A stretch of 64,000 nucleotides of DNA from an uncultured Candidatus Saccharibacteria bacterium (GTDB taxonomy: Bacteria > Patescibacteriota > Minisyncoccia > UBA6257 > 2-01-FULL-56-20). The notes beneath the pieces were generated by a model that saw nothing but the letters and a program-made list of their open reading frames with translations, searched no databases and had not been told where the DNA came from. The DNA is taken from contig CAYQFA010000001.1 in the NCBI GenBank assembly GCA_964416665.1, positions 40,082 through 104,081 of the forward strand, given 5' to 3'. Positions 8,827 through 60,380 of this stretch are shown piece after piece. The number at the start of each line of letters is the position of its first letter. The first letter of the stretch is position 1. Both the position numbers and the translations under genes were made by a program.

Positions 8827-9463
8827 AACCTATCACAAAGTAGCGGCAATAGTCCTTTCGATCGCGATCCTCGGCGTCGCGCTTTACGGCTCGTACCTTC
8901 CGATGAGGAAAGCGCAGATGTTCATCGCCACGTTACAGAGCCTCCAGACCACTCCCGCGACATCATTGTCGGATCTTAAATCTCGCCTTTCTATACCGCT
9001 CGATTATCCTTCGCCGATCGGTCAGGAAGAACTCGTGCGCAACCTGGCGAACAGCGTCCTTTCATTCATACAGCAAGGCGCCGACCCCTCCTCGACCGCC
9101 CAGCTCATGAGTTTCTTGAACAGCTACTACAATCCGATTTTAAATACCGGCAAGGGCATGAGCTTTGGGCAGGATGTTTATCTTGAGGGCGCCATCAACG
9201 AGATAGCGTTTGCCGAGACCGGCGATCAGTCGTATCTTGCTGCCGCCAAGCAGTGGTATCTGGAGGCACGTCAACTCGGTCCCAATCGCCCACAGTCGCT
9301 TTATGGTCTGTTCGATGTTTATCGCGCCGCGAACGACGCGCCGGACACTATCGCGATAGGGGGGCAAATCATCGCCAATTGGCCGAGTGATGCCCGCATT
9401 CAGATGGCACTCCAGCAGTTTATGGCAGCTCAATCTTCGACAGCGACCTCGACGGGGAAGTAG
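8807..9463 (+). CDS. hypothetical membrane-anchored protein (N-terminal TM, helical/TPR-like C-terminal region)
   Basis: The ATG at 8807 (MATMEDRTYHK…) overlaps the end of the Wzy_C gene by 20 nt. The track ORF actually begins further upstream in the same frame. No recognisable catalytic motif. Confidence 0.4.
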   Translation: MATMEDRTYHKVAAIVLSIAILGVALYGSYLPMRKAQMFIATLQSLQTTPATSLSDLKSRLSIPLDYPSPIGQEELVRNLANSVLSFIQQGADPSSTAQLMSFLNSYYNPILNTGKGMSFGQDVYLEGAINEIAFAETGDQSYLAAAKQWYLEARQLGPNRPQSLYGLFDVYRAANDAPDTIAIGGQIIANWPSDARIQMALQQFMAAQSSTATSTGK

Positions 9464-9528
9464 GACGCGGCGATACAATAGAAATCGTAAAAAAGTACTT
9501 GCTCCCTGTGAGGATGGCGGTCGTCTTG

Positions 9529-9558
9529 TTGACTGGCACTGTCAATAAATTGTAATAT
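9529..9558 (+). promoter_or_regulatory. promoter heading the + strand glycan gene block (rfbF … hddC)
   Basis: TTGACT (9529-9534), ~18 nt, TAATAT (9553-9558). The -10 ends only 6 nt before the rfbF ATG, suggesting a leaderless transcript. Confidence 0.4.
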
Positions 9559-9564
9559 CATACC

Positions 9565-10347
9565 ATGAAAGTCGTGATTCTATGCGGTGGCTACGGTACG
9601 CGAATAAGGGACGTAGCCGATGATATCCCGAAGCCGATGATCCCGATCGGGGATCGGCCCATCGTGTGGCACATCATGAAGTATTATTCCACCTTCGGGC
9701 ATAATGATTTTGTTTTATGCCTTGGATATAAGAGTGAGGTGATCAAGAATTACTTCGTGAATTACGAAGCCCGGGCCAACGACATCCAGATAACGCTGGG
9801 AAAAGACAGTGGCGTCGGTTATGCCACGGCTCACGACGAAGCGGGTTGGAAGATCACAATGGCCGAAACGGGTTTGAACGCTCTGACCGGCGCCAGGATA
9901 AATCGGATCAAAAAATATATAGGAGACGATAAATATTTTATGCTGACCTACGGCGATGGCGTCGGCGATGTCGATATTGATGCTCTTTTGGCTTTCCATA
10001 AATCTCACGGTAAAATAGCGACCTTGACCGGAGTGCGGCCGCCGGGTCGTTTCGGTGAGCTTGAGATAGGCCCCAACAAGGAAGTTTTGGGGTTCAACGA
10101 GAAGCCGCAGGCGAGCGCCGGGCGGATCAATGGAGGTTTCTTTATTCTGAACACCGAGGTTTTCGATTATCTTTCCGACGACGAGAGATTGATGTTCGAG
10201 CAGGAACCGATCAAAAAATTGGTGGCTGACGGCCAGTTGATGGTCTTTGAGCACGATGGGTTTTGGCAGCCGATGGACACATCGAGGGATTATGCGCTGT
10301 TGAACGGTCTTTATAATGATAAAAAAGCGCCATGGATAAAGTGGTGA
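9565..10347 (+). CDS. rfbF: glucose-1-phosphate cytidylyltransferase
   Basis: 260 aa. Nucleotidyltransferase N-terminus MKVVILCGGYGTRIR and RfbF-like body (…YGDGVGDVDIDAL…). Confidence 0.8.
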   Translation: MKVVILCGGYGTRIRDVADDIPKPMIPIGDRPIVWHIMKYYSTFGHNDFVLCLGYKSEVIKNYFVNYEARANDIQITLGKDSGVGYATAHDEAGWKITMAETGLNALTGARINRIKKYIGDDKYFMLTYGDGVGDVDIDALLAFHKSHGKIATLTGVRPPGRFGELEIGPNKEVLGFNEKPQASAGRINGGFFILNTEVFDYLSDDERLMFEQEPIKKLVADGQLMVFEHDGFWQPMDTSRDYALLNGLYNDKKAPWIKW

Positions 10348-11456
10348 GCAGGAAAAAATTATTTGGGGGTGTTTACCAAGGGAAGAAGGTGCTTGTCACC
10401 GGGCACACGGGATTCAAGGGAAGCTGGCTGACGGCCTGGCTTCTGCAGCTTGGAGCGGACGTGTATGGGATATCGAACGGTATTCCAACCAAGCCGTCTC
10501 ACTTCGAGGAATTAGGGTTGAGAAAAAAAATCGTCCATTTCGAGGAGGATGTGCGCGATCTGGACGTCATGGTAAAGATCGTGAAGAAGGTCAAGCCTGA
10601 TTTTCTGTTCCACCTTGCGGCGCAACCCATCGTGTCTTTGTCATACACCGATCCGATAAAGACCGTCACCTCGAATGTCGTCGGAACCGCCAATATATTG
10701 GAGGCTTTGCGTTTGGCCGATCGAAAATGTGTCGCGGTCATCATCACGAGCGATAAATGCTACGACAACGTAGAACAGATCTGGGGGTACAAAGAAGGCG
10801 ATACTTTGGGAGGAAAAGATGTCTATAGCGGATCCAAGGGAGCTGCCGAGCTTATTTGCAAATCGTATTATCATTCATTTTTCAAGAACAATAGTCCCGT
10901 CCGCATGGCTACCGCGAGAGCGGGAAATGTCATAGGTGGCGGCGATTGGGCGGCTGACCGGATCGTGCCCGATTGCATGAGGGCATGGTCAAAAAATAAA
11001 ACTGTCGCGATCCGCAGCCCGAAGGCAACAAGGCCGTGGCAACATGTTTTGGAGCCGCTGAGCGGATATTTATTGTTGGGAGAAGCGTTGCTGGGCGACG
11101 CTTCATTGTCCGGTTCAAGCTTCAACTTCGGGCCGAGGTCCGATTATACGCAGACGGTGCAAACGGTTTTGGAAGATCTGAGCGCCTGCTGGCAGTTTTC
11201 TTCCCCGAAGGAAGCTTATGCGGTCGTCGATGGGACGAAGTTCCACGAGGCCGGACTGCTGAAACTGAATTGTGAAAAGGCGGCATACTATTTAAAATGG
11301 TCTCCCGTTCTTGATTATAAAACCTGTGTTGATTTTACCGGAAAATGGTACTTTTCTTTCTATAAGAAAAAAGAGGATATGATGGATTACACCCTGAACC
11401 AGATAAAAGAGTATGAGCGGCTGGCCGCCGCCATGAAACTGCCATGGACAAATTGA
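10332..11456 (+). CDS. rfbG: CDP-glucose 4,6-dehydratase
   Basis: 374 aa SDR-fold protein with VLVTGHTGFKGSWL and the catalytic YSGSKGAAE motif. Overlaps rfbF by 16 nt. Confidence 0.8.
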   Translation: MDKVVSRKKLFGGVYQGKKVLVTGHTGFKGSWLTAWLLQLGADVYGISNGIPTKPSHFEELGLRKKIVHFEEDVRDLDVMVKIVKKVKPDFLFHLAAQPIVSLSYTDPIKTVTSNVVGTANILEALRLADRKCVAVIITSDKCYDNVEQIWGYKEGDTLGGKDVYSGSKGAAELICKSYYHSFFKNNSPVRMATARAGNVIGGGDWAADRIVPDCMRAWSKNKTVAIRSPKATRPWQHVLEPLSGYLLLGEALLGDASLSGSSFNFGPRSDYTQTVQTVLEDLSACWQFSSPKEAYAVVDGTKFHEAGLLKLNCEKAAYYLKWSPVLDYKTCVDFTGKWYFSFYKKKEDMMDYTLNQIKEYERLAAAMKLPWTN

Positions 11457-11878
11457 TCTCGGGGGTCGTTCTTACTCCACTCAAGGTCATCGCCAATCCG
11501 CTTGGGGACGTGTACCACGGCATGAAAAAATCCGATCCCGGTTTCGCCGGCTTTGGAGAGGCTTATTTTTCCACCGTTAATAAAGGTGATATCAAATCTT
11601 GGAAAAAACATACTTCGATGACCTTGAACCTCGTCGTACCCGTCGGGGCGATTCGTTTTGTCGTTCATGATGACAGGGAGGGGAGCGAGACCAAAGGTTT
11701 ATTCAACGATTTCACGCTTTCTCTGGATAATTATCAACGGCTCACGGTGCCACCGGGAGTGTGGATGGCCTTTCAGGGCGTCGGTGAGAAAAATCTTTTA
11801 TTGAACGTTGCCAATTTGGAACACGTGCCGGAGGAGGGCGCCCGCGTCGAGCTCGGAACATTTCCTTATCGCTGGTAA
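11444..11878 (+). CDS. RmlC-like cupin sugar-nucleotide 3,5-epimerase/isomerase
   Basis: 144-aa cupin. Has the RmlC-family layout (…FGEAYFSTV…VPPGVWMAFQ…). Overlaps rfbG. Confidence 0.55.
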   Translation: MDKLISGVVLTPLKVIANPLGDVYHGMKKSDPGFAGFGEAYFSTVNKGDIKSWKKHTSMTLNLVVPVGAIRFVVHDDREGSETKGLFNDFTLSLDNYQRLTVPPGVWMAFQGVGEKNLLLNVANLEHVPEEGARVELGTFPYRW

Positions 11879-11879
11879 T

Positions 11880-12860
11880 ATGCGGATATTCATTACCGGG
11901 GCAAGCGGATATCTGGGAGCGCGGATCAGTAAGTTTTTCGCAGATAGGGGAGATCAGGTCTTTACGCTATGTTTTTCTGCGATTCCCGACGATCCGGAGT
12001 GGGTGAATGCCATGGAGGAGGTTCTTGTTGGCGATGTCCGCGATGAGAACTTAATGAAGGAGGTCGCCAACAAAAAGATGGACGCCATTATACACTTGGT
12101 GTCCCTGGACCAGAAACAATCCGGTGGGTTGCCGTCGTTCGTGTCATCCGTCAACGTGGCGCCGACATGGAGTTTGCTTGACGTCTTTTCCGGGCAGGGA
12201 CTCAAGCAATTCATCTATTTTTCCACCGTCCATGTCTACGGCAACCTCGACGCGTTGGGCGGCGAAACCATAACGGAGAGCAGGGAATTGGATTGCAAAA
12301 ATCCTTATGCCCTCACGCATGCGTTGGGCGAGGAGATCTGCGATTATTATGCTAAGACGTCGGACACGGCTTGCACGATTCTCAGACTATCGAACAGCTA
12401 TGGAAGTCCCGTGCTCCTGAACGCCAATTGTTGGCAACTCGTAGTGAACAATCTATGCAAGAGCGCTTTTGAAAAAAAGAAGATTGAATTGTCGGGGGAT
12501 GGTTCTTCGATGAGGGATTTCATCCACGGGGACGATGTTTGCCGGGCCGTCGAGGCCGTGATGGATCGGTCGGCCGTTCGTGCTCCCGCCGCGGATATCT
12601 TCAATGTCTCCTCCGGCACGGCCCTCACGGTATTGGAGCTCGCTGGGGTGGTACGAGAAGAATATCAAAGGCGTTACGGAGAGAACATTCCCGTATCAAC
12701 ATCAAACGGCGCTTGCGATAATTTTGATTTGTTCAAGGACAAAGCGAAGTACACTATTTCAAACACCGGTCTGAAAAATATAGGTTTTGTGCCAAAAAAC
12801 GACTTGAAAGACGGTATCAATGGCCTCTTTTCTTTCTTAGAGCTGAACAATAAAGCGTGA
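11880..12860 (+). CDS. NAD-dependent epimerase/dehydratase (SDR); likely 4-reductase/epimerase of the CDP-6-deoxyhexose branch
   Basis: ATG at 11880 directly after the upstream stop (MRIFITGASGYLGARI…). YxxxK-type SDR features are present. Confidence 0.6.
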   Translation: MRIFITGASGYLGARISKFFADRGDQVFTLCFSAIPDDPEWVNAMEEVLVGDVRDENLMKEVANKKMDAIIHLVSLDQKQSGGLPSFVSSVNVAPTWSLLDVFSGQGLKQFIYFSTVHVYGNLDALGGETITESRELDCKNPYALTHALGEEICDYYAKTSDTACTILRLSNSYGSPVLLNANCWQLVVNNLCKSAFEKKKIELSGDGSSMRDFIHGDDVCRAVEAVMDRSAVRAPAADIFNVSSGTALTVLELAGVVREEYQRRYGENIPVSTSNGACDNFDLFKDKAKYTISNTGLKNIGFVPKNDLKDGINGLFSFLELNNKA

Positions 12861-13786: not shown

Positions 13787-14815
13787 ATGAAGAAGTATTT
13801 TTATATTCTGAACCATCCTCTTTGTCCGACCCCGTATACCCACCGTTTTTTTGTCGAGAAATTCGCTTCGGGTTTCACCTACCATGGCTATGAGGTGAAG
13901 CTGATCTCGTCACCGCAGGAGATCGTGGGCCCGGGCGTGATGATGATCTACGATGCCGGATTTTATTTCTATTGGAACGATGGCATAAGGAATCTTCGTC
14001 GGGATTTTTTCATCATTGTCGACAGGGCTTTCAAAGCGCTGAAGTTAACGTGGTTCTCCGATCTCTGTTGGCATCTTCGCAAGAAGGCGATCATGCAATT
14101 TGCCCCGACGTTGAAAGAAAAGAATGTGGTATTGTTGGGATGGTTCTGGTTCTGGCAGAAGAAATTTTTCGACGACAACAGCATAAAGATCGTCTACACC
14201 GGTGAATACTTCTATCGAGAACCGGTTCACCGGCATCGTAAGGCGTGGTGGCATTTTTATACTGAGAATCGTGAGGGCCATGCGTTACCCATCCAGTTCG
14301 CCGCCGCGATGGATCCTCTCGTCGTAGGGTCGGATCCGGAAGCGAAAAGGGATATTATGGTATCATTCGTAGGGGAGCGAAAGTATAAGCCCGACTGGCA
14401 GGCCCTGTTCAATAAGCGGTCGGACTGTCGGATCGTGCCTACTCCTCCCTACATTCCCGAACTCGAGCGAATTGATATTTATAAGAGAAGTCTTGTTTCC
14501 TTAGGGCTTGAAGGATGTCCTCTTATAAGAGATGGGCTTGTGACGGAAAGGATTTTTGAGGCCTTGGCATACGGGGCCGTGTGCATTACCAACCATGATG
14601 AAGCCGTTGAAGCGACGAACGGCGCCGCGGTCTTTGCAAAGGATGCAAACGATGCGGAGGAGAAGGTGAAATATTTTTCCGCCGATAGGGCCGCAGCGAC
14701 GAGGCAGAGGGCGTTGGGATTTCGGTTTGTGAAAGAACAGGGGACATATGCTCATCAGGCAGGGAAATTCATTGCACTTATAGAAGGCGGTGTTCAGCAA
14801 AATTCTCATTTGTAA
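13787..14815 (+). CDS. putative glycosyltransferase (GT1/GT4-like C-terminal domain)
   Basis: ATG at 13787 (MKKYFYILNHP…) follows the upstream stop at 13781. The C-terminal region ERIFEALAYGAVCIT resembles the GT-B donor-binding fold. Confidence 0.4.
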   Translation: MKKYFYILNHPLCPTPYTHRFFVEKFASGFTYHGYEVKLISSPQEIVGPGVMMIYDAGFYFYWNDGIRNLRRDFFIIVDRAFKALKLTWFSDLCWHLRKKAIMQFAPTLKEKNVVLLGWFWFWQKKFFDDNSIKIVYTGEYFYREPVHRHRKAWWHFYTENREGHALPIQFAAAMDPLVVGSDPEAKRDIMVSFVGERKYKPDWQALFNKRSDCRIVPTPPYIPELERIDIYKRSLVSLGLEGCPLIRDGLVTERIFEALAYGAVCITNHDEAVEATNGAAVFAKDANDAEEKVKYFSADRAAATRQRALGFRFVKEQGTYAHQAGKFIALIEGGVQQNSHL

Positions 14816-32647: not shown

Positions 32648-33568
32648 ATGATGTACGACGTCATTATCATCGGTGGCGGTCCCGGCGGCATCGCTGCCGG
32701 GGTTTACGCTGCGCGAAAAAAGATGAAGACGCTCTTGATCACCGACAGTTTCGGCGGACAGTCGCTGACGTCCGCGGGGATCGAGAATTGGATCGGCATA
32801 AAATCGATCTCGGGCTACGACCTCGCGAAGATGCTTGAGGAACATTTGCGTGCGCAGCAGGGTATCGAGATCGTTGATAACGACCTTGTGAGCGGCGTCA
32901 CAAAAAAGGATGGCGGTTTTGATGTTGTTACAAAGGGTGGTAAAACGTTCGAGACGAAATACATCCTTATGGCTTCGGGGAGCAGGAGAAAAAAGCTCGG
33001 TATTCCCGGCGAAGCGGAATTTGACGGCAAGGGCGTGGTGTATTGCTCGACGTGCGACGCGCCGATCTTCGGCGGTAAGACCGTGGTGGTCGTAGGCGGT
33101 GGAAATTCTGCGCTCGAATCGGTCGTCGATCTTCTGCCCTATGCGTCAAAGATCTATTTGATGGTTCGCAGTGACGTCATGCGGGGTGATCCTGTCACGC
33201 AGGAAAAATTGAAGAGTCATCCGCAGGTGGAGATTCTTTTCAATGCGGCGCCGCAGGAAGTAATTGGAAAAGATTTTGTGACCGGTTTGCGCTACAAAGA
33301 CGCGAAGACCGGCGAGCAAAAGGAATTGGCGCTCGACGGCGTCTTTGTCGAGATCGGTCTCGTGCCGAATTCCGATTTTGTAAAAGACCTCGTGACGCTG
33401 AACGAATTTGGCCATGTGATCGTCGATCACAAAACACAGCAGACGTCCTGCCCCGGCATCTGGGCCGCAGGCGACGTAAGCGACGTGCTCTACGACCAGA
33501 ATAATATCTCCGTAGGCGACTCTATCAAGGCAGTGTTGAATATCTACGACAGGGTGAAGAAGGATTAG
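32648..33568 (+). CDS. trxB: thioredoxin-disulfide reductase-like FAD/NAD(P) oxidoreductase
   Basis: FAD site DVIIIGGGPGGIAAG, redox-active CSTC, NAD(P) site VVVVGGGNSALE, and C-terminal GIWAAGDV. Confidence 0.7.
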   Translation: MMYDVIIIGGGPGGIAAGVYAARKKMKTLLITDSFGGQSLTSAGIENWIGIKSISGYDLAKMLEEHLRAQQGIEIVDNDLVSGVTKKDGGFDVVTKGGKTFETKYILMASGSRRKKLGIPGEAEFDGKGVVYCSTCDAPIFGGKTVVVVGGGNSALESVVDLLPYASKIYLMVRSDVMRGDPVTQEKLKSHPQVEILFNAAPQEVIGKDFVTGLRYKDAKTGEQKELALDGVFVEIGLVPNSDFVKDLVTLNEFGHVIVDHKTQQTSCPGIWAAGDVSDVLYDQNNISVGDSIKAVLNIYDRVKKD

Positions 33569-33683
33569 GAACGCAAGGTACTCTTTGTTTTGGAGGTCGC
33601 GTCGTTTTCTGCTGAAAACGCGCTACGCCTCGGCGCCTACGCGCCTCCGGCATACCTCCAAAACAAAGAGTACCTTGCGTTCC
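33568..33683 (+). repeat. 116-nt compound palindromic element: perfect 29-bp inverted repeat enclosing two internal hairpins
   Basis: Outer arms GGAACGCAAGGTACTCTTTGTTTTGGAGG (33568-33596) and CCTCCAAAACAAAGAGTACCTTGCGTTCC (33655-33683). The interior contains CGTTTT-CTGCTG-AAAACG and a GC-rich hairpin. Starts at the last base of the trxB stop codon. Confidence 0.6.
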
Positions 33684-33752
33684 TAATCCTTCTTCAGTTA
33701 GCCAGAATCAAGATTAATCCCCAGAGGGAAAGCCAAATAGCAAGGGTACGCA

Positions 33753-33791
33753 CTTTTGCGGCCTGCTGCGAAGACGCAACGGCCGCAAAAG
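33753..33791 (+). repeat. conserved-loop hairpin family member A
   Basis: Stem CTTTTGCGGCC/GGCCGCAAAAG (11 bp); 17-nt loop TGCTGCGAAGACGCAAC. Confidence 0.6.
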
Positions 33792-33837
33792 CATGTGCCC
33801 TTGCTATTTAGCCCAACTTGATGTATCATAATCCATA

Positions 33838-34104
33838 ATGCTTACTAAAAGAGTGAAATCCCGCATCGTCGGGGAACATAAAACGAGCGAAAAAGACACG
33901 GGTTCCGCCCAGGTTCAGGTTGCCATGCTTTCGCGTCAGGTTGGCGAACTCGCCACCCATCTCAAGAAAAATCCGAAGGATAACCATTCTCGTCGCGGGT
34001 TGTTAAAGATGGTCTCCAAGCGCAGGAAACTTCTGTCGTATCTGAAGAAACACGAGCCAGCCTCGTATGAAAAGTTGATCAAGAAGCTTGAACTTAAAAA
34101 ATAA
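33838..34104 (+). CDS. rpsO: 30S ribosomal protein S15
   Basis: 88 aa: MLTKRVKSRIVGEHKTSEKDTGSAQVQVAMLSRQVGELATHLKKNPKDNHSRRGLLKMV…. Confidence 0.9.
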   Translation: MLTKRVKSRIVGEHKTSEKDTGSAQVQVAMLSRQVGELATHLKKNPKDNHSRRGLLKMVSKRRKLLSYLKKHEPASYEKLIKKLELKK

Positions 34105-34775
34105 TGAAGCAAGGAACAAATTATTCCAACCAGCGAGTTGGGATTTTTGTTGATGTGTCGAATCTGTACCACTCAGCAAAAAATCTTTATCAGGGGCGCG
34201 TGAATTACGCCGAGCTCATCAAGCATCTTGTGGGCGGGCGCCAGCTCATTCGCGCCGTGGCGTACGTGGTGCGGAGCGAGGGCGTGGAACCGCAACAGCC
34301 GCGCGGGCATATGCGCATGGCCGAGAAGGACCAGGCTGCGGCAGTCTCGATCGTTCCGGCATCCGCGAACGCGAATGGATCGAATGGTACCGGCGACGGC
34401 GCGAACGGGGGTATGTCCTCCGAAGCGAGTTTCTTTGAAGCGCTCGAGAAAGCCGGACTTGAGCTTCGCATGAAGGACCTTCAGATCTACGCGGGCGGGC
34501 TTAAGAAGGGCGATTGGGATGTCGGCCTCACTGTGGACGTCATCCGCATGATGCCGTTCCTCGATGTCATTATTCTGGTCACTGGCGACGGCGATTACAT
34601 TCCGCTGGTCAATTATGTGAAATGGGCAGGAGGGCGAGTGGTCGAGATCGCCTCGTTTCGAAGGAGCGCATCGTCAAAACTGGTGGAGGCGGCGGACGAG
34701 TTCATAAACATAGAGGCTCTTCCGCGGGCGATCATGAAGTCGCGGTATGTCGCAAGGACGAAAAGGCCGCAGTAA
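34104..34775 (+). CDS. NYN-domain (LabA-like) predicted ribonuclease with an internal low-complexity insert
   Basis: VGIFVDVSNLYH…VILVTGDGDYIPL NYN/PIN-like motifs. The ATG overlaps the rpsO stop by 1 nt (TAATG). Confidence 0.6.
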   Translation: MKQGTNYSNQRVGIFVDVSNLYHSAKNLYQGRVNYAELIKHLVGGRQLIRAVAYVVRSEGVEPQQPRGHMRMAEKDQAAAVSIVPASANANGSNGTGDGANGGMSSEASFFEALEKAGLELRMKDLQIYAGGLKKGDWDVGLTVDVIRMMPFLDVIILVTGDGDYIPLVNYVKWAGGRVVEIASFRRSASSKLVEAADEFINIEALPRAIMKSRYVARTKRPQ

Positions 34776-34843
34776 ACGTACAGCAAGTAGCAGTCGGTAA
34801 AAGATCAAAAATAAATTAACTAACCGAAGCGCGATAAAGGGGA

Positions 34844-34919
34844 TGTCATTCCGAGCTTTGCGCGAGATCCGTCAAAACGGCATGGGCCGCAGCGATCTTT
34901 CTCAAAGCTCAGGATGACA
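34844..34919 (+). promoter_or_regulatory. long imperfect hairpin in the pnp 5' leader (candidate RNase III / autoregulatory site)
   Basis: Arms TGTCATTCCGAGCTTTGCGCGAGATC and GATCTTTCTCAAAGCTCAGGATGACA (26 nt, a few mismatches) around a 24-nt loop, 35 nt upstream of the pnp ATG. Confidence 0.4.
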
Positions 34920-34954
34920 AGACTCCCTCCGGTTCGCGGTTCAAAATTAAAAAT

Positions 34955-37060
34955 ATGTTGCAAAAAAAGGAATTTTCCACGGAAATTGCGGGTAAAAAAT
35001 TAACAATCGAGATTTCGGCGCTCGCGGAGCAGGCCAACGCCGCGGTGATCGCGAAGTACGGCGAGACGGTGATATTGGCGACCGCTGTCATGGGTCGCAA
35101 AGATATCGAGCTTGATTATCTTCCTCTTAAGGTTGATTACGAAGAGAGGTTCTACGCCGCGGGCAAGATACTCGGCAGCCGTTATGTCCGTCGCGAAGGC
35201 CGCGCTTCCGAAGAGGCGATACTGGCCGGTCGGCTCATCGACCGCACCATCCGCCCGCTTTTCGATAACCGCATGCGCCGTGATATCCAAGTGGTCGTCA
35301 CTGTGTTGCAGATCGACGAGGAAAACACGCCGGAGTTTGTCGGTTTGCTCGGCGTTTCCACGGCGTTGTTCATCTCCGACATTCCATGGGGCGGTCCGGT
35401 CGCCGGCGTCCACGTCGCGCAGTTCGCGGACGGCTTCAAGGTCAATGCGGACAAATCATCGATCGCGAAAAATGAACACGTCTTCGAATCGTTCGTCTCG
35501 GGTTCCCGTGATCGCATCAATATGATCGAGCTTGGCGGACTGGATGCACAGGAAAAAGACGTCGTTGAAGGATTCAAGCTTGCGCAGCAGGAGATCAACA
35601 AACTCATTGCGTTCCAGGAAACGATACAAAAGGAGATCGGCAAAGCGAAGGCCGAGGTTGCACTCGTTGAGCCCGATCCGGAACTCAAGGCGGAAGTGAC
35701 GGCATTCTTGGCAGACAAGTTGGAGGATGCGATATACAAGCCGACGAAAGTGGAGCACACGACCGCGGTGGGCGCGTTGAACCATGAACTCAACCTTCAC
35801 CTTAAGGAAAAATTCGCGGAAACGAAAGAAAAGATAAACTGGAAGGCGGTGGAATCGCTTTTTGAGGAGATGGTGAATGACCTCGTTCATAAGAATGTTT
35901 TGGAAAAGGAAAGGCGTCCTGACGGCAGGAAGCTTGACGAGGTTCGCGCACTTGATGGTCAGGTGGGCCTGTTCTCCCGCGTCCACGGTTCCGCGTTCTT
36001 CTCACGCGGGAACACGCAGGCGCTCGCGATAACGACGCTTGGCGTTCCGGGTTCCGAGCAGCTCATTGAAAGTATGGAAACCAATGAGAAGCGTCGCTTC
36101 CTTTTGCACTATAATTTCCCGCCGTATTCCGTCGGCGAGGTCGGCAACTTCCGCGGGCCGGGCCGTCGCGAGATCGGTCATGGTAATCTGGCGCGCAAAT
36201 CGCTCGAGCGGTTGCTCCCTTCGAAAGAGGAGTTTCCGTACACCATCCGCGTGGTTTCTGAGATCATGTCATCGAACGGATCGTCTTCGCAGGCGACCGT
36301 GTGCGCCTCCGCGCTCTCGATGATGGACGCTGGCGTACCGCTCAAAAAGCCGGCAGCAGGCATTGCGATGGGGCTCATGATGAGCGATGTCGACCACTAC
36401 AAAGTGCTGACCGATATCCAGGGACCGGAAGATCATCATGGCGACATGGACCTTAAGGTTGCAGGGACCGATGATGGCGTAACCGGCATGCAGATGGACG
36501 TCAAAGTGGACGGGCTCACGATCGAAATTCTGGCCGCGGCATTCGAACAGGCAAAGCAGGCGCGTATCCACATCTTGAAGACTGTGAAGGCGATCCTCCC
36601 GATGCATCGCGATAAACTTTCGCCGTTCGTTCCGACCATCCGTCAGTTCAAGATCGATCCGTCAAAGATCGGTACGGTCATTGGCCCTGGCGGCAAGATG
36701 ATCAACGGTCTTATCGCGAAATACGAATTGGCTGGCATTGACATTGAAGAGGACGGCGGCGTTTTCGTTTCCGGTACCGACCTTGCAAAAGTCGAGGCGG
36801 CGGTTGCGGAGATCATGGGAATGACCAAGGAATATAAAGTTGGCGAGATCGTAGAGGGCACTATCGTGAAGATCCTTGAATTCGGCGCGATCGTCGATAT
36901 CGGCGGTGGCCGTGATGGCATGATCCACGTTTCGGAGCTTCGGCAGGGGTTCGTGAAGAACGTCGAAGACGTGGTGAAACTTGGCGATTTCGTCCGCGCG
37001 AAGATCATCAAGGCCGAAGACGGCAAGATAGGCCTTTCGTTGAAACAGATGGAAGGGTAA
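34955..37060 (+). CDS. pnp: polyribonucleotide nucleotidyltransferase (PNPase)
   Basis: 701 aa with two RNase PH domains, a KH domain and an S1 domain (…GPGGKMINGL…, …VEGTIVKILEFGAIVDIGGGRDGMIHVSEL…). Confidence 0.9.
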   Translation: MLQKKEFSTEIAGKKLTIEISALAEQANAAVIAKYGETVILATAVMGRKDIELDYLPLKVDYEERFYAAGKILGSRYVRREGRASEEAILAGRLIDRTIRPLFDNRMRRDIQVVVTVLQIDEENTPEFVGLLGVSTALFISDIPWGGPVAGVHVAQFADGFKVNADKSSIAKNEHVFESFVSGSRDRINMIELGGLDAQEKDVVEGFKLAQQEINKLIAFQETIQKEIGKAKAEVALVEPDPELKAEVTAFLADKLEDAIYKPTKVEHTTAVGALNHELNLHLKEKFAETKEKINWKAVESLFEEMVNDLVHKNVLEKERRPDGRKLDEVRALDGQVGLFSRVHGSAFFSRGNTQALAITTLGVPGSEQLIESMETNEKRRFLLHYNFPPYSVGEVGNFRGPGRREIGHGNLARKSLERLLPSKEEFPYTIRVVSEIMSSNGSSSQATVCASALSMMDAGVPLKKPAAGIAMGLMMSDVDHYKVLTDIQGPEDHHGDMDLKVAGTDDGVTGMQMDVKVDGLTIEILAAAFEQAKQARIHILKTVKAILPMHRDKLSPFVPTIRQFKIDPSKIGTVIGPGGKMINGLIAKYELAGIDIEEDGGVFVSGTDLAKVEAAVAEIMGMTKEYKVGEIVEGTIVKILEFGAIVDIGGGRDGMIHVSELRQGFVKNVEDVVKLGDFVRAKIIKAEDGKIGLSLKQMEG

Positions 37061-37066
37061 AACAAC

Positions 37067-37139
37067 AAAACAACCCCACCCTCTTTTGAAAACCTGCTGT
37101 GCGGACACAACGGTTTTCAAAAGAGGGTGGGGTTGTTTT
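37067..37139 (+). terminator. pnp terminator; also conserved-loop hairpin family member B
   Basis: Perfect 28-bp stem AAAACAACCCCACCCTCTTTTGAAAACC/GGTTTTCAAAAGAGGGTGGGGTTGTTTT around loop TGCTGTGCGGACACAAC, followed by TTTTGTTTCTCTT. Confidence 0.65.
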
Positions 37140-37165
37140 GTTTCTCTTGTGCTAGAATAAAACAA

Positions 37166-50138: not shown

Positions 50139-50945
50139 ATGAAAAAAATCACCAAATTGGTACTGCCCATTGCCGGGCTCGGCAAACGCCTGCTTCCTCT
50201 TACTGCGATAACTCCAAAGAATCTCATTCCCGTGAATGGCAAACCCATTTTGGAGTATGTCCTTGAAGAGGCGGTTGCGAGCAAGATAAAAGAGGTGATA
50301 CTTATCATCAATCCCAAACACCTTAAGGATTTCAAGGCGTATCTTGCAAAGAACAAGAAGCGGTTTCCCACGCTTACGTTCCATATCCGCATCCAGGAAA
50401 CGCCGGGCGGAAATGGCCATGCGATCGCTCAGGCTTATGATCTCGTGAAAGGCGAGCCTTTCGCGGTACGTTTCTGTGATGATGTGCTTTCGGGCGAGCC
50501 GGCTGCACTTCCGGCGCTCCTTGAGATCTTCAAAAAATATCAGGCGTCGGTGGTGCTTCTGGAAGCGGTTCCCAAGGCTGATGTCTCGCGGTTCGGGGTC
50601 GTTGGGTTTGAAAAGGGGAAGGCGGCAACGGCCTCCTTCGCTGGCGGGACCATTTATAAAATAAACAAGATAATTGAAAAGCCAAAAACGAAAGACGCAC
50701 CTTCGAATTTGATCATCGTCGGCGGTTATGTGCTTACCCCGGACATACTCCGCAATCTAAAAATGGTTGCCGATACTTTGCCGGTCGTTGCCGACGATGC
50801 GTTGCCGCTCGCGGTGGCGCTGCAGATCGAATTGATCGTTAAGGGCAGAATTTATGGCTGGGAATTTCCCGGCAAGCGCCTTGATTGCGGCACGTTGGAA
50901 AAGTTGCAGCAAACGGAAGAATACCTGAGAAACAACAAGCAGTAA
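50139..50945 (+). CDS. galU: UTP-glucose-1-phosphate uridylyltransferase-like nucleotidyltransferase
   Basis: N-terminus KLVLPIAGLGKRLLPLTAITPKNLIPV and a GalU-like body. Confidence 0.65.
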   Translation: MKKITKLVLPIAGLGKRLLPLTAITPKNLIPVNGKPILEYVLEEAVASKIKEVILIINPKHLKDFKAYLAKNKKRFPTLTFHIRIQETPGGNGHAIAQAYDLVKGEPFAVRFCDDVLSGEPAALPALLEIFKKYQASVVLLEAVPKADVSRFGVVGFEKGKAATASFAGGTIYKINKIIEKPKTKDAPSNLIIVGGYVLTPDILRNLKMVADTLPVVADDALPLAVALQIELIVKGRIYGWEFPGKRLDCGTLEKLQQTEEYLRNNKQ

Positions 50946-51026
50946 TCCGGCAAAACAAAACAGTCCCTTTCCGGCTCGTGATGAGAATAATTCGCCGGAA
51001 AGGGACTGTTTTGTTTTGCCGGATTA
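50941..51026 (+). repeat. perfect 34-bp palindrome IR1 with an asymmetric 18-nt centre
   Basis: GTAATCCGGCAAAACAAAACAGTCCCTTTCCGGC - TCGTGATGAGAATAATTC - GCCGGAAAGGGACTGTTTTGTTTTGCCGGATTAC. The first arm contains the galU stop codon. Confidence 0.7.
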
Positions 51027-51089
51027 CTGCTTTATTTTCTTTAGGTTCTTCCGTTTGCTGCAACTTTATCTTTCCGGCAAAGCCATACG

Positions 51090-51179
51090 GCAATTGCAGG
51101 ATAGCAAGGAGAATGGCTTTCCGGCGAATTATTCTCATCACGAGCCGGAAAGCCATTCTCCTTGCTATCCTGCAATTGC
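51090..51179 (+). repeat. perfect 36-bp palindrome IR2 with the same 36-nt core as IR1 in opposite orientation
   Basis: GCAATTGCAGGATAGCAAGGAGAATGGCTTTCCGGC - GAATTATTCTCATCACGA - GCCGGAAAGCCATTCTCCTTGCTATCCTGCAATTGC. The centre is the reverse complement of the IR1 centre. Confidence 0.7.
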
Positions 51180-51181
51180 TA

Positions 51182-51190
51182 TGGTATAAT
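51182..51190 (+). promoter_or_regulatory. extended -10 element (TGGTATAAT) 6 nt upstream of the regulator ATG
   Basis: TGGTATAAT followed by CCGGCA-ATG. It is identical to the box upstream of recA. Confidence 0.4.
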
Positions 51191-51196
51191 CCGGCA

Positions 51197-51862
51197 ATGC
51201 TAGAGAACGGCAAGGATCGCTTTATTTTTACGAAATCTTATGAGATTGCTTACGCCTTGTTTCGTATGGCAGGGCAAATTGAAGAAAAGGATTTTTCCGA
51301 AAGGCTGAGGGTGCTTGGGGGATCGTTGCTTCAGGCTTCGGCAGGGCAGGATTACGTCGAGGCGAGCAAATCATTGCAAATGATCGAGTGTCTGGCAAAG
51401 TTCGCGGGAGATGTGAACATAATTAGCTCGGCGAACTCTAATATCTTCCTTGGGGAGATATACACACTCGATGCGGCAATTATAGAGTACCGCAATGCGG
51501 CAAATAACGACCGGCTGAACTTGTCGGATATCTTTTCCAAAACCGAACCGGAAGTGACCCCTCCGCCGGTGGTTTATGATAATCCGGCAAACAATAATCC
51601 GGCAATGGAAATTGCCGCAAGCGAGATGCCGGTAGCCGATAGTGCGGCAAATAATATGAAAGCGGAAATGCGGCAATCTACCATCGTGGAAAGAATCCGG
51701 CAATCCGGCAATTGCCGCTTGAAGGATATCAGGGAACTTTTGCCGGATACCAGCGAGCGGACCATCCGATATGACCTTCAATCCCTTCTCGAGAAGAACC
51801 TTATCGAGCGGGTAGGGGATGGAGGGCCGTCGGTGTTTTATCGGTTGCGGGAGTTGGCATAG
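51197..51862 (+). CDS. putative transcriptional regulator: N-terminal helical domain, low-complexity linker, C-terminal DeoR-type winged HTH
   Basis: The C-terminus STIVERIRQSGNCRLKDIRELLPDTSERTIRYDLQSLLEKNLIERV is DeoR-HTH-like. ATG at 51197; the track ORF starts earlier, inside the palindromes. The linker DNA carries the AATCCGGCAA repeats. Confidence 0.45.
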   Translation: MLENGKDRFIFTKSYEIAYALFRMAGQIEEKDFSERLRVLGGSLLQASAGQDYVEASKSLQMIECLAKFAGDVNIISSANSNIFLGEIYTLDAAIIEYRNAANNDRLNLSDIFSKTEPEVTPPPVVYDNPANNNPAMEIAASEMPVADSAANNMKAEMRQSTIVERIRQSGNCRLKDIRELLPDTSERTIRYDLQSLLEKNLIERVGDGGPSVFYRLRELA

Positions 51863-57042: not shown

Positions 57043-57123
57043 AGCAGGAGATTAGGTTGTGCCATTTTATGACCTGCTGCGCAGACGCAACGGTCATAAA
57101 ATGGCACGACCTAATCTCCTGCT
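57043..57123 (+). repeat. conserved-loop hairpin family member C
   Basis: 32-bp stem (one G-U pair) AGCAGGAGATTAGGTTGTGCCATTTTATGACC/GGTCATAAAATGGCACGACCTAATCTCCTGCT; loop TGCTGCGCAGACGCAAC. Confidence 0.65.
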
Positions 57124-57273
57124 TCTCGTCTTTGTAAGAGCGGGGAGCGTGGGGTAAGGAGAACCCCTTACCTCACACGACGAGCCCTCGTCGTTCAACG
57201 GATAGGACGCAAGATTGCGGATCTTGTAATCGAAGTTCGATTCTTCGCGGGGGCACAAAACAGAAAGACAAAA

Positions 57274-57326
57274 CCCTCTTCTTTTCGACCGAATCGCGCG
57301 GACGCTAAAGGTCGAAAAGAAGATGG
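57274..57326 (+). repeat. divergent hairpin family member E
   Basis: Stem CCCTCTTCTTTTCGACC/GGTCGAAAAGAAGATGG (one mismatch); loop GAATCGCGCGGACGCTAAA retains the apical GCG-CGGA-CGC mini-helix. Confidence 0.45.
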
Positions 57327-57348: not shown

Positions 57349-57376
57349 TTGAAAATGGCCAGCGATAGGCTATAAT
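57349..57376 (+). promoter_or_regulatory. promoter for tRNA-Gly
   Basis: TTGAAA (57349-57354), 16 nt, TATAAT (57371-57376), about 35 nt upstream of the mature tRNA 5' end. Confidence 0.5.
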
Positions 57377-57410: not shown

Positions 57411-57482
57411 GCGGGTATCGTATAGCGGCTATTATGTAACCTTGCCAAGGTTAAGATACGGGTTCGACTCCCGTTACCCGCT
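57411..57482 (+). tRNA. tRNA-Gly(GCC); CCA not encoded
   Basis: Acceptor stem GCGGGTA/TACCCGC, anticodon loop TTGCCAA (anticodon GCC), T arm ACGGG-TTCGACT-CCCGT. Confidence 0.85.
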
Positions 57483-57484
57483 CA

Positions 57485-57579
57485 CAGACAGAACAAGCCA
57501 GAACAGAATACTCTTTTTCGACCTGCTGTGATTACACAACGGTCGAAAAAGAGTATTCTGTTCTGGCTTGTTTTGTCTG
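57485..57579 (+). repeat. conserved-loop hairpin family member D (39-bp stem), on the tRNA-Gly 3' trailer
   Basis: Arms CAGACAGAACAAGCCAGAACAGAATACTCTTTTTCGACC and GGTCGAAAAAGAGTATTCTGTTCTGGCTTGTTTTGTCTG. Loop TGCTGTGATTACACAAC. Starts 3 nt after the tRNA 3' end and is followed by a T-rich tract. Confidence 0.65.
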
Positions 57580-57613
57580 GTCTGGTTGCGGCCGAAATGG
57601 TAGAATTTTCCGC

Positions 57614-58471
57614 ATGGGAATTCTTCTCGCGCTTGTCGCGTTGCTCTCATGGGGCTTGGGAGATTTTTTGATCCAAAGGAGCACGAGAAAATTTGGGGAT
57701 TGGGTCGCTCTTTTTTACATCACGGCATTCGCGTCAATCGTTCTGCTCCCTTTTGTTTATAAGGACATCGCTCGTTCATTGGACGCTCATGGGATGTTGT
57801 TGTGGTTTGCGAGCTTCGCGATCCTGTTCGCCGGTCTTTTGGATTTCGAGGCGCTCCGGGTGGGAAAAATTTCGGTGGTAGAACCGATCTATGCGTTGGA
57901 AATTCCCGTAGCGGCCATTCTGGCGGCGTATATCATTCACGAACGGCTTAGTGTTTTGCAGATCGTTTTCGTGGCAATCCTTATGGTCGGCATTTTTCTT
58001 ATTGCCACGACGTCGTTCCAGCGGCTTAAAAAGATCAGCGCGGAACGCGGCGTGTGGCAGGCGGTTTTGGGGACCATTGCCGTGGGTATCGTGAATTTTC
58101 TGTTCGGCGTGGGATCGCGGGAAACGAGCCCGCTCATGATAAATTGGTTCACCAGTATTTTTATTGCGCTGGTCGCCCTTATTTATTTGGCCTCGACCTC
58201 GCGATTGCATGAACTTGGCGGCAACTTCAAAAACGGGAAAGCGCTCATTCTGAGCGTCGGGTTTTTTGATAATCTTGCATGGGTGACGTTTTCATACGCC
58301 ATGCTTTATATTCCAATTGCGATAGCGACCGGTATCAGCGAAGGATATATCGCTTTTGCCGGAGCGCTGGGGTTGTTCTTCAATAAGGAAAAGCTGCGCC
58401 GCCATCAATGGGCCGGTTTCTTTTTAGTGGTGATATCAGTTGTGCTATTAGCGTTCGTCACAAAGGATTGA
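57614..58471 (+). CDS. EamA/DMT-family transporter
   Basis: Ten TM helices with a duplicated EamA-like architecture. Confidence 0.6.
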   Translation: MGILLALVALLSWGLGDFLIQRSTRKFGDWVALFYITAFASIVLLPFVYKDIARSLDAHGMLLWFASFAILFAGLLDFEALRVGKISVVEPIYALEIPVAAILAAYIIHERLSVLQIVFVAILMVGIFLIATTSFQRLKKISAERGVWQAVLGTIAVGIVNFLFGVGSRETSPLMINWFTSIFIALVALIYLASTSRLHELGGNFKNGKALILSVGFFDNLAWVTFSYAMLYIPIAIATGISEGYIAFAGALGLFFNKEKLRRHQWAGFFLVVISVVLLAFVTKD

Positions 58472-58479
58472 GATAACAT

Positions 58480-58537
58480 AAACACCCCCTTCTTCAAAAG
58501 CATTATTCTTATCATGCTTTTGAAGAAGGGGGTGTTT
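58480..58537. terminator. bidirectional intrinsic terminator between convergent EamA gene and glmS; overlaps the glmS stop codon
   Basis: Perfect 24-bp stem AAACACCCCCTTCTTCAAAAGCAT/ATGCTTTTGAAGAAGGGGGTGTTT with a 10-nt loop, flanked by an A-run on one side and a T-run on the other. Confidence 0.7.
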
Positions 58538-60380
58538 ATTCTACCGTTACCGATTTCGCCAGATTTCGTGGCTTGTCCACATCGCATCCGCGCGCGACGG
58601 CAACGTGATAGGCGAAAAGATAAACGGGGATCGCGGCGAGGATAGGCATGAGCGCCTCGTGGCAATCGGGGATAGCGATGACGTCGTCGGTCCAGGCGCG
58701 CAACTCGGCTGCGGCAGCGCCAGCGGTCGTGAGCGCGATGACCGGCCCGCCGCGCGCCTTCACTTCTTCGAGGTTCGATTTGGTTTTCTCGTAGGTCTTG
58801 TCTTGGGGAATGATAAAGAACGTCGGCGTCTGTGCATCGATCATCGCGATCGGCCCATGTTTAAACTCGCCCGCGGCGCACCCTTCGGCATGCAGATAGC
58901 CGACCTCCTTCAGTTTGAGCGCGCCCTCAAGCGCGATAGGGAAGTTGTGGTTGCGTCCGAGGAAGAACATGTGCTGGACATGCGCGTATTTTTCCGCGGT
59001 TGCTTTTATTGTCGGTTCCTGTTCGAGGACTTTTTTGAGGAGCATCGGCAGAAGTTCAATTTCTAAAGATATCTTTTCCGCTCCAACGGCGTTTTCGTTT
59101 TCGCGCCGCCGCGCCATTTCCGCTGTGATCAACGTGAGCACGGTGAGTTGCGAGATAAACGCCTTCGTCGAAGCGACGCTGATCTCCGGTCCTGCGTGGT
59201 TATAGATGACGGCGTCGGTTTCCCGCGCGATGGTCGATCCGACCGTGTTCACGATGCCGAGCGTGCGCGCGCCACGCCGCTTTGCTTCGCGGATCGAGGC
59301 CAGCGTGTCTGCGGTCTCGCCTGACTGCGAGATGGCGATGGCGAGCGTTTTGGGGCGGAGCGGCGCCTTCCGATAGCGAAATTCGGAGCCGATATCAACT
59401 TCGACGGGGATATTGGCGTAGGCTTCAAGAAGGTATTTCCCGACGTATCCCGCGTGCGCCGCGGTGCCGCAGGCGACGATCGTGATATTCTCGATATCAT
59501 GCATGGCTTCGACGGCTGCGCCGAGCGTTTTGCCGTTCGCGCGCAGCGCGTTCACGACCACATCCGGCGCCTCAAAGATCTCTTTGTGCATAAAATGAGG
59601 GTGGCCATTTTTTCCCGCGTCCTCGAGGGTGACGGTCAGCGTCCGTACCGCATGCTCAACCTTTTTTCCATCAAGCGTTTCGATGGCAAGATTACCAGCT
59701 CCGACTTCAGCGATTTCTCCGTCATCGAGATAGATGACTTTTTTGGTGCGACTTAGGATCGCCGATGCATCCGAGGCGATGATGTTCTCGCCGTCGCCCA
59801 CGCCGATGATGAGCGGGCTCGCGCTTCGCGCGCAGACGATCGTTTTCGGATCGTTCGCGGCGATCGCGGCGATCGCGTAAGTGCCGCGTATTTCTTTAAG
59901 GGCACGCTGTGCGGCGTGGAAGAGTCCATGCTCGTCGCCCTCGTCATCCTCCGATTTTTTGCGATGATATTTTTCGATCAGGTGCGCGAGGACTTCCGTG
60001 TCGGTGTCCGAAGAAAATCGGTGCCCGTCGGATATCAGGTCTTTCTTGAGCTCCGCATAATTTTCGATGATGCCGTTATGGACGACAAGAATGGTGCCGC
60101 TGCAGTCGGCGTGAGGATGCGCGTTCCTTTCTGACGGCGCACCATGGGTCGCCCAACGTGTGTGCGCAATACCGATATGGGCCTTTTGTGCGCCGCCGTT
60201 ATCGCTGAGCTTCGCTTCCAGATTTGCGACCCGTCCGGCGGCGCGGATCCAAAGAACTTTGCCGTCGGTTATCGCTGCGACACCCGCTGAATCGTAGCCT
60301 CGATATTCAAGCCGCTTCAAACCGTCCACCAGAATGGGGATCACGTTCTCGTCGCCGATGTAGCCGATGATGCCGCACAT
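58536..60380 (-). CDS. glmS: glutamine--fructose-6-phosphate aminotransferase
   Basis: N-terminal MCGIIGY (Ntn glutaminase), two SIS domains, and C-terminal …KSVTVE. The ATG at 60380 gives the canonical Cys2 start; the track ORF starts 8 codons upstream. Confidence 0.9.
   Translation of the reverse strand: MCGIIGYIGDENVIPILVDGLKRLEYRGYDSAGVAAITDGKVLWIRAAGRVANLEAKLSDNGGAQKAHIGIAHTRWATHGAPSERNAHPHADCSGTILVVHNGIIENYAELKKDLISDGHRFSSDTDTEVLAHLIEKYHRKKSEDDEGDEHGLFHAAQRALKEIRGTYAIAAIAANDPKTIVCARSASPLIIGVGDGENIIASDASAILSRTKKVIYLDDGEIAEVGAGNLAIETLDGKKVEHAVRTLTVTLEDAGKNGHPHFMHKEIFEAPDVVVNALRANGKTLGAAVEAMHDIENITIVACGTAAHAGYVGKYLLEAYANIPVEVDIGSEFRYRKAPLRPKTLAIAISQSGETADTLASIREAKRRGARTLGIVNTVGSTIARETDAVIYNHAGPEISVASTKAFISQLTVLTLITAEMARRRENENAVGAEKISLEIELLPMLLKKVLEQEPTIKATAEKYAHVQHMFFLGRNHNFPIALEGALKLKEVGYLHAEGCAAGEFKHGPIAMIDAQTPTFFIIPQDKTYEKTKSNLEEVKARGGPVIALTTAGAAAAELRAWTDDVIAIPDCHEALMPILAAIPVYLFAYHVAVARGCDVDKPRNLAKSVTVE

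Follow-up and report, generated by a model that had tools for sequence, protein, structure and literature searches.

Results and discussion

The 39-bp hairpin located directly downstream of the tRNA-Gly(GCC) gene was found to be a member of an undescribed, lineage-specific hairpin family of a narrow Minisyncoccia (CPR/Patescibacteria) clade. Judging from the sequence of the locus and of its relatives, this hairpin probably acts as an intrinsic-type terminator, or as an insulator, at the 3' end of a monocistronic tRNA-Gly unit. The family is notable among gene-end palindromes for combining a conserved apex on arbitrary arms with a DNA-type, concerted evolution of those arms. All positions given below refer to the window, i.e. 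the whole 64-kb stretch of DNA that was analysed, unless a related contig (L-numbers) is named.

The tRNA-Gly(GCC) transcription unit

The tRNA-Gly locus contains the following features:

57349-57376, + strand: sigma-70-type promoter of the tRNA-Gly unit (TTGAAA, 16-nt spacer, TATAAT; 11 of 12 consensus matches)
57411-57482, + strand: tRNA-Gly(GCC) with discriminator U57482 (ARAGORN 57411-57483; Rfam tRNA 57411-57482, 60.2 bits)
57485-57523, + strand: 5' arm of the hairpin, 39 nt; outer part A-rich, inner part CTCTTTTTCGACC
57524-57540, + strand: M1 apex of the hairpin, TGCTGTGATTACACAAC, 17 nt; covariance-model score 72.7 bits
57541-57579, + strand: 3' arm of the hairpin, 39 nt; terminal part U-rich, CTTGTTTTGTCTG
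57598-57606, + strand: extended -10 element of the EamA gene, TGgTAGAAT (read from the sequence; conserved in L138, L144 and L153)

The acceptor arms of tRNA-Gly(GCC) read GCGGGTA and TACCCGC, and CCA is not encoded, as the first-pass annotation had stated, because C-A-C-A-G comes right after the discriminator. The same annotation had described a 39-bp stem with one G-U pair starting at the third base past the discriminator, and both points were borne out by the inverted-repeat search and by the sequence: the stem starts at 57485 and consists of 38 Watson-Crick pairs and one G-U pair (G57491·T57573), with 97% complementarity between two 39-nt arms separated by 17 nt. A 196-nt region containing the hairpin folds at -101.1 kcal/mol, compared to a mean of -52.0 for shuffled versions (z = -11.3), and none of 200 shuffles was as stable. 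A stable stem-loop directly 3' of the transcription unit, here 2 nt after the tRNA, is one of the features of an intrinsic terminator. Another is a U-rich tract of about 7-9 nt adjoining the stem on its 3' side. U is abundant in the final 13 nt of the 3' arm (CUUGUUUUGUCUG), but this segment is paired with the A-rich segment of the 5' arm, and the stem is followed by GUCUGGUUG, leaving no free U-tract on its 3' side. No terminator was called at this site by the consensus scan.

The tRNA-Gly promoter, which is also present in L138, is predicted to be active, and the extended -10 element downstream of the hairpin would serve the EamA gene, the ATG of which lies at 57614. Since this element ends 7 nt before the ATG, the EamA mRNA is probably leaderless. 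In this region (57598-57616), TAGAATTT..CATGGGAATTCT is conserved in L138, L144 and L153. As the tRNA-Gly gene has its own promoter and EamA its own -10 element, the hairpin is situated where a terminator or insulator between the two units would be expected. The unit would consist of the promoter, a leader of approximately 35 nt, the tRNA, a 2-nt spacer and the hairpin, with EamA forming a separate, probably leaderless unit. RNA polymerase would stop at the hairpin or be insulated by it, the U-rich end of the 3' arm presumably pairing with the A-rich 5' segment as in bidirectional terminators. The 3' end of the tRNA could then be freed endonucleolytically beside the discriminator (RNase Z type) or after removal of the hairpin, CCA would be added following this release, and the apex may be read in the RNA by a putative factor.

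Comparable arrangements have been described in E. coli, where the monocistronic leuX and proline tRNAs are directly followed by a terminator hairpin that is removed by RNase E, PNPase or RNase P, and where tRNA-adjacent terminators can inhibit RNase P until they are removed (PMC2811032, PMC5291269, PMC2241853). The Rho-independent terminators of E. coli tRNA genes (leuX, proK/proL/proM, secG-leuU and metT) resemble the arrangement proposed here in that a stable hairpin lies a few nt after the tRNA and has to be removed before or during 3' maturation. They differ in stem length (typically 5-15 bp, compared to 39 bp here), and the present hairpin has no unpaired U-tract, follows a tRNA gene that does not encode CCA, and has an apex sequence that recurs in dozens of otherwise unrelated hairpins. 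The loops of ordinary terminators, by comparison, are more variable than the arms (PMC13155455).

On the tRNA side, 19-20 of the 25 distinct tRNA genes of the lineage (window 57483-57484; L126-L155) have C-A directly after the discriminator, while the full CCA is encoded in only two of them, tRNA-Glu in L134 and tRNA-Ala in L150. The C-A could act as a 3'-processing determinant specific to this lineage, or it could represent part of an encoded CCA end.

Members of the hairpin family in the window

The sequence CTGCTGYGNNNNCRCAACG occurs in four exact copies in the window, all on the + strand (at 33763, 37094, 57074 and 57523), each at the centre of an inverted repeat of 31-39 bp, and the arms of these four M1 hairpins are mutually unrelated. 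A covariance model built from 32 members retrieved the four M1 sites with 61-73 bits (E-values of 1e-13 to 5e-17), discriminated between the strands and scored the tRNA-Gly copy best; the only other match in the window was an M2 site, which was recognised weakly (28.5 bits). Besides the tRNA-Gly hairpin, the relevant features are:

33732-33812, + strand: M1 hairpin upstream of rpsO, with a -35-like TTGCTA in the 3' arm
37064-37142, + strand: M1 hairpin of 31 Watson-Crick pairs, beginning 3 nt past the stop codon of pnp
50923-51046, + strand: M3-type hairpin, apex TCGTGATGAGAATAATTC; the 5' arm overlaps the end of an NTP-transferase gene
51086-51183, + strand: M3-type hairpin, same 36-nt core reversed; the 3' arm carries the -35 of the promoter of a DeoR-family gene
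57043-57123, + strand: M1 hairpin, 32-33 bp with one G-U pair, 7-8 nt after the stop codon of a 163-aa ORF
57149-57176, + strand: short 11-bp hairpin without apex module, just upstream of tRNA-Arg
57184-57256: tRNA-Arg(GCG)
57274-57326, + strand: M2-type hairpin, apex GAATCGCGCGGACGCTAAA, 17 nt after tRNA-Arg(GCG)

The tRNA-Gly hairpin, which had been singled out as the longest stem of its family, does hold this position among the four M1 copies in the window, but is exceeded in arm length by the M3 hairpin at 50923-51046 (53 nt at 89%, with 39 bp perfect).

Several further observations were made in the surroundings of these hairpins. The 18-nt loops of the M3 pair (50923-51046 and 51086-51183) would be fully complementary on one transcript and could kiss. 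A -35-like TTGCTA lies in the 3' arm with the -10 just outside of it both before rpsO (TATCAT; 33781-33830) and before the DeoR-family gene (TATAAT; 51144-51197), and because of these -35 elements inside hairpin arms, terminator-like palindromes and promoters overlap. The operon of rpsO, an NYN-domain nuclease and pnp (33838-37142) is flanked by two M1 hairpins, and this RNA-decay operon contains, in the NYN protein (34104-34775), a putative and uncharacterised RNase. At 33555-33696 lies a 43-bp perfect inverted repeat (-104 kcal/mol, z = -17) with a different, larger type of apex, a 56-nt centre forming two small hairpins; its 5' arm covers the last 14 nt of a thioredoxin-reductase-like gene. 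A module-less 29-bp hairpin with a TCTT loop (58478-58539) occupies the 64 nt that separate the convergent genes EamA and glmS, and its arms (AAACA-CCCCC-TTCTTCAAAAG) are similar in composition to module-bearing stems. The GCG anticodon of the tRNA-Arg is also found in L132, L138, L144 and L155. Bacterial tRNA-Arg normally has an ACG anticodon that is edited by TadA to ICG, and in view of the GCG anticodon the lineage may lack the TadA/ICG system.

Structure and conservation of the M1 apex

The consensus of the M1 apex is TGCTGYG-NNNN-CRCAAC. When the tRNA-Gly copy is folded as RNA, its centre does not form an open loop: a bulged U is followed by a G-C pair, a C·A mismatch and a 4-bp helix (TGTG/CACA), which is closed by the tetraloop ATTA. 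Of the 17 apex positions, 12-13 do not vary among members, whereas the arms are too different to be aligned. In the 32-member alignment the Y6-R13 pair of the apex covaries (26 U-A and 6 C-G), the G2-C17 pair shows a single change, to A-U, and the tetraloop is variable except for its final A (ATTA, CGGA, AGTA, CAGA, AAGA and others). Over the whole alignment, 99.4% of the cells are paired and 16 of 21 pairs change on both sides, a result matched by none of 500 shuffles. Conservation across the approximately 40 members is limited to the apex, the CC/GG closing pairs and a T-run/A-run, and for T-run and apex it is in part due to ascertainment, since the metagenome search pattern itself demanded both. 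The outer parts of the arms share a terminator-like composition, with an A-rich stretch followed by a C-run on the 5' side and a G-run followed by a T-rich stretch on the 3' side.

Among the four M1 copies in the genome of the window, sequence differences are confined to the tetraloop and the covarying Y-R pair. As the copies thus vary at free positions only, the M1 apex looks like an asymmetric, folded motif under purifying selection.

Occurrence in related contigs and databases

A metagenome scan with the specific M1 pattern gave matches in 27 contigs, which came from bog, peat and bog-lake samples. Of these, 24 contained true M1 members, amounting to approximately 36 distinct further hairpins with stems of 19-42 bp in related Minisyncoccia (CPR). 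The contig L122, being 99.96% identical to the window, was uninformative. When the metagenome contigs were scanned for hairpins irrespective of the loop, nearly all hairpins of at least 25 bp with a centre of 15-20 nt carried M1, M2 or M3. The nearest named homologs of the EamA protein come from Minisyncoccia, Paceibacterota, Nomurabacteria and Liptonbacteria (CPR/Patescibacteria). No module was found in relatives with 73-78% EamA identity (20 kb each). The contigs L150, L151, L152 and L154, which have EamA homologs but are not syntenic, are without M1, M2 or M3, and the covariance model gave no match in 100 kb from more distant relatives. Given these module-less EamA relatives, the family appears to be restricted to a narrow clade. 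In L154, the EamA homolog is located between a LAGLIDADG homing-endonuclease gene and an IS110-family transposase (8638-11895), and a hairpin at 14122-14179 has an 18-nt centre that loosely resembles M3.

At the gathering threshold of Rfam 15 only the tRNA passed and the hairpin matched no family; with E-values of up to 10, only sub-threshold look-alikes of miRNA precursors appeared (e.g. 46.8 bits against a threshold of 100). The apex pattern gave 46 chance matches in viral contigs, none with stems, and the family is not phage-borne in the viral collection scanned. The bare apex pattern also gave at least 120 chance matches in genome contigs, in high-GC genomes, none of those listed having flanking stems.

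Placement and orientation relative to genes

Genes on the metagenome loci were predicted with a hexamer-scored caller and spot-checked against Pfam, with tRNA calls alongside. Relative to stop codons the hairpins begin at -16 to +8 nt, and relative to tRNA 3' ends at 0-5 nt. They adjoin stop codons as often as tRNA ends, and the majority of the members lie directly 3' of protein-coding genes (pnp, recG-adjacent genes, EamA, an FtsX-type permease and others). Nine members are located between convergent genes. For hairpins with the end of a gene or tRNA on just one side, the apex had the sense of that gene in 21 of 23 cases, a count that, like the others on placement and orientation, is not fully independent because several of the loci are orthologous. 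This bias in sense points to a reader at the RNA level. The apex also agreed with the local GC skew, but more weakly than with gene direction (23 of 31 cases compared to 21 of 23), and GC skew was rejected as the determinant of apex orientation.

Approximately ten members lie off gene ends or have the apex in antisense. They include hairpins that precede tRNA-Arg and the DeoR-family gene by 5-14 nt, the hairpin upstream of recG in L134, the one after tRNA-Gly(CCC) in L139, and those between apparently divergent genes in L146 and L129; in promoter-proximal hairpins the apex is mostly antisense. In L144, two copies 6 kb apart have opposite orientations. In two of the contigs (L148, 9851-9937; L149, 1093-1183), convergent genes both end 7 nt inside the palindrome, so that one palindromic TAG is the stop codon of both genes and their last codons are identical by symmetry.

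Family members follow other tRNA genes as well, contrary to what the first-pass annotation had named as refuting its reading: apart from tRNA-Gly(GCC), this is the case for tRNA-Arg in the window (M2), tRNA-Pro in L141, tRNA-Val and tRNA-Ile in L142 and tRNA-Gly(CCC) in L139, the last with a reversed apex. Long hairpins without a module directly follow tRNA-Gly in L138, tRNA-Arg(TCT) in L141 and tRNA-Arg(TCG) in L150.

Orthologous loci and evolution of the arms

Four orthologous tRNA-Gly(GCC)-EamA spacers were compared, namely those of the window, L138 (to which L155 is identical), L144 and L153. The spacer in L138/L155 contains a plain 22-bp hairpin with a TATT loop followed by a T-tract, and no hairpin was found in the spacers of L144 and L153. 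In the relatives without a hairpin, the native trailer of tRNA-Gly is homologous to the U-rich outer part of the 3' arm in the window. Since orthologous tRNA-Gly genes have a plain hairpin or none, the M1 hairpin is, on this comparison, dispensable for tRNA-Gly maturation.

Exchanges were also seen at other orthologous sites. The hairpin upstream of tRNA-Arg carries M2 in L138 and L144 and M1 in L132, and lacks the module in the window, where the remaining 11-bp hairpin (57149-57176) is orthologous to the outer stem of the module-bearing ones. A similar exchange is seen in front of the DeoR-family gene, where two hairpins with homologous outer stems have different apices, M3 in the window and M1 in L144. 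Identical cores occur in adjacent hairpins, both in the M3 pair of the window and in the L147/L137 pair, and the inner stem CTCTTTTTCGACC is common to M1 and M2 copies. In these comparisons, the apex modules behave like movable parts.

In the stems of the 40 distinct module-bearing hairpins, 1227 pairs are Watson-Crick (98.8%), 6 are G·U, 6 are A·C and 3 are of other types, and G·U is thus not in excess of A·C although the arms of orthologous hairpins have strongly diverged. The latter differ by 5-14 changes per arm, including 2- and 4-nt indels, which are mirrored in both arms; L149 and L128, for example, differ at nine positions without any internal mismatch in either. Module-less long hairpins collected from the same contigs by the same rule contain 269 Watson-Crick pairs, 7 G·U, 1 A·C and 5 other combinations, a distribution that differs from that of the module-bearing stems with p = 6e-4 (Fisher), though the numbers are small. 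The module-less hairpins are less perfect, and their pairing looks RNA-like.

Read in this way, the alignments indicate that the arms of module-bearing hairpins evolve in concert. We infer that they are kept identical at the DNA level, by template switching within the palindrome or by gene conversion; mirrored indels are hard to obtain through independent mutation and selection on the RNA, which favours templated copying. Alternatively, arm identity may be maintained at the RNA level if both strands must fold, as in bidirectional terminators. Template switching at quasipalindromes is known to turn imperfect inverted repeats into perfect ones and is able to lengthen them (PMC7202029, PMC3820800). 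Under this mechanism, substitutions and indels should be mirrored and G-U should not be preferred, as found in the arms of this family, but the mechanism is known from E. coli and yeast as a mutational hotspot and not as the upkeep of a gene-end family.

Comparison with known element types

REP, BIME and REPIN elements are palindromes scattered through intergenic DNA, mostly directly downstream of genes and in both orientations, for which roles in termination or mRNA stabilisation have been proposed (PMC3733652). The present family is similar in consisting of dispersed gene-end palindromes, but REPs have conserved arms with a GTAG/CGTC tag and variable loops, while here the apex is conserved and the arms of the approximately 40 members are unrelated, and an assignment to REP/REPIN was rejected on these grounds. 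No RAYT transposase was seen in the annotated parts of approximately 0.4 Mb of DNA from the lineage.

Substrates of the yeast RNase III Rnt1p carry AGNN tetraloops, and phage T7 has RNase III sites between its genes. Both share with this family a conserved terminal feature on arbitrary stems, situated at the 3' ends of transcription units or between units. The hairpins do not qualify as Rnt1p-type substrates, which are cleaved 14-16 bp away from an AGNN tetraloop, since the tetraloops found were ATTA, CGGA, AGTA, CAGA, AAGA and others, and the conserved part consists instead of a sub-apical bulge, mismatch and helix.

A different resemblance is offered by TIGR stem-loop arrays, which encode Tas guide RNAs, occur in some Parcubacteria and have variable palindromic stems flanking short conserved loop motifs (PMC12045711). 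They are, however, tandem arrays beside a Nop-domain tas gene, with two 8-12-nt spacers and box C/D motifs in the loops, while the present hairpins are single, lie at the ends of housekeeping genes and have a fixed 17-nt centre; with the hairpins dispersed and no tas gene found, they were not classified as a TIGR array. Integron attC sites have R and L boxes at the base of the stem, extrahelical bases and a variable centre, and occur in cassette arrays beside intI. The family shows the opposite pattern, a conserved centre and a variable base, has housekeeping and tRNA genes as neighbours and no integrase, and does not fit attC either. K-turn, boxA and CRP- or LexA-like operators were judged by eye and discarded, as spacing or consensus does not fit.

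Alternative explanations

The first-pass annotation had taken the hairpin for a dedicated processing or termination signal and not a chance terminator. Both the existence of the family and the shuffling results support its non-chance origin, and the hairpin is best understood as acting where the transcription unit ends, while the proposed dedication to tRNA processing was not supported, given that most members lie at protein-gene ends and that hairpin-less orthologs exist. The remaining explanations concern mainly what the family as a whole does and how it is maintained.

A broader, tentative reading is that the family constitutes a loop-defined gene-end element. Its asymmetric apex of approximately 20 nt might be read in the RNA sense by a putative factor that sets or marks 3' ends, with perfect palindromes of local sequence kept by templated copying and the module being mobile between neighbours.

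It is rather doubtful that the hairpins are selfish DNA, i.e. that an apical module of approximately 36-49 nt spreads among pre-existing terminator palindromes by insertion, template switching or gene conversion and is tolerated at gene ends. Modules that are present, absent or swapped at the orthologous tRNA-Arg and DeoR-family hairpins, identical cores in neighbouring hairpins (M3 pair; L147/L137), the inner stem common to M1 and M2, and the DNA-type perfection of the arms with mirrored indels would all fit such a spread. The copies within one genome are, however, not near-identical, and their compensated inner stems and invariant asymmetric apex are unlike the outcome of recent transposition; neither a transposase nor an HUH-family nuclease was seen nearby, the viral contigs scanned lack the family, and the apex is strongly biased towards the sense of the upstream gene (21 of 23).

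Loop-guided RNA processing or decay, in which the apex would recruit or position a double-strand-specific or other endonuclease that cuts the long stem and so separates units and sets mRNA and tRNA 3' ends, appears unlikely. Perfect duplexes of 30-40 bp are ideal RNase III substrates, and the stems of the family are of this kind; moreover, an apex that is conserved and sense-oriented on arms of any sequence, as well as the bracketing of the RNA-decay operon (rpsO, NYN nuclease, pnp) by two M1 hairpins, would suit such a mechanism. It agrees less well with the variability of the tetraloop itself and with the module-less hairpins at equivalent sites, and no candidate enzyme could be linked to the apex.

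That the hairpin is a dedicated tRNA 3'-processing signal, directing cleavage between tRNA-Gly and its trailer, is very improbable. The position of the hairpin 2 nt past the discriminator of a tRNA without encoded CCA, the family members within 0-5 nt of five other tRNAs in related contigs and module-less long hairpins after three more, and the C-A at the start of nearly all tRNA trailers of the lineage speak for it; but the majority of members follow protein-coding genes, the same modules also occur upstream of genes, and the orthologous tRNA-Gly(GCC) genes have a plain hairpin (L138) or none (L144 and L153). Lacking both conservation at orthologs and restriction to tRNAs, the hairpin was rejected as an element of this class.

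Finally, a site in duplex or cruciform DNA for a replication, recombination or nucleoid protein, with the quasi-palindromic CCTGCTGYG/CRCAACGG as operator, is barely credible: the quasi-palindromic centre, a Y-R covariation also expected of symmetric half-sites, arms behaving as DNA palindromes and the agreement of the apex with GC skew (23 of 31) are offset by an orientation that tracks the adjacent gene better (21 of 23), by the oppositely oriented L144 copies only 6 kb apart, and by a conserved bulge and mismatch that make little sense in a duplex operator.

Implications

With the hairpin read as a terminator or insulator, little changes for tRNA-Gly itself, as a terminator behind a stand-alone tRNA is nothing unusual and the M1 hairpin is not needed in relatives. 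To our knowledge, nothing is known about transcription termination or RNA processing in uncultured Minisyncoccia, and for these organisms the family provides a sequence-defined marker of transcription-unit ends. It also represents a natural case of concerted evolution of palindrome arms, with mirrored indels and no tolerance for G-U, which points to template switching during replication as a process shaping terminators in reduced genomes. The conserved, sense-oriented apex in turn implies a putative RNA-binding or RNA-processing factor. The hairpins can furthermore assist the annotation of metagenome-assembled genomes of CPR bacteria, in which they could mark the limits of operons and perhaps also assembly breakpoints.
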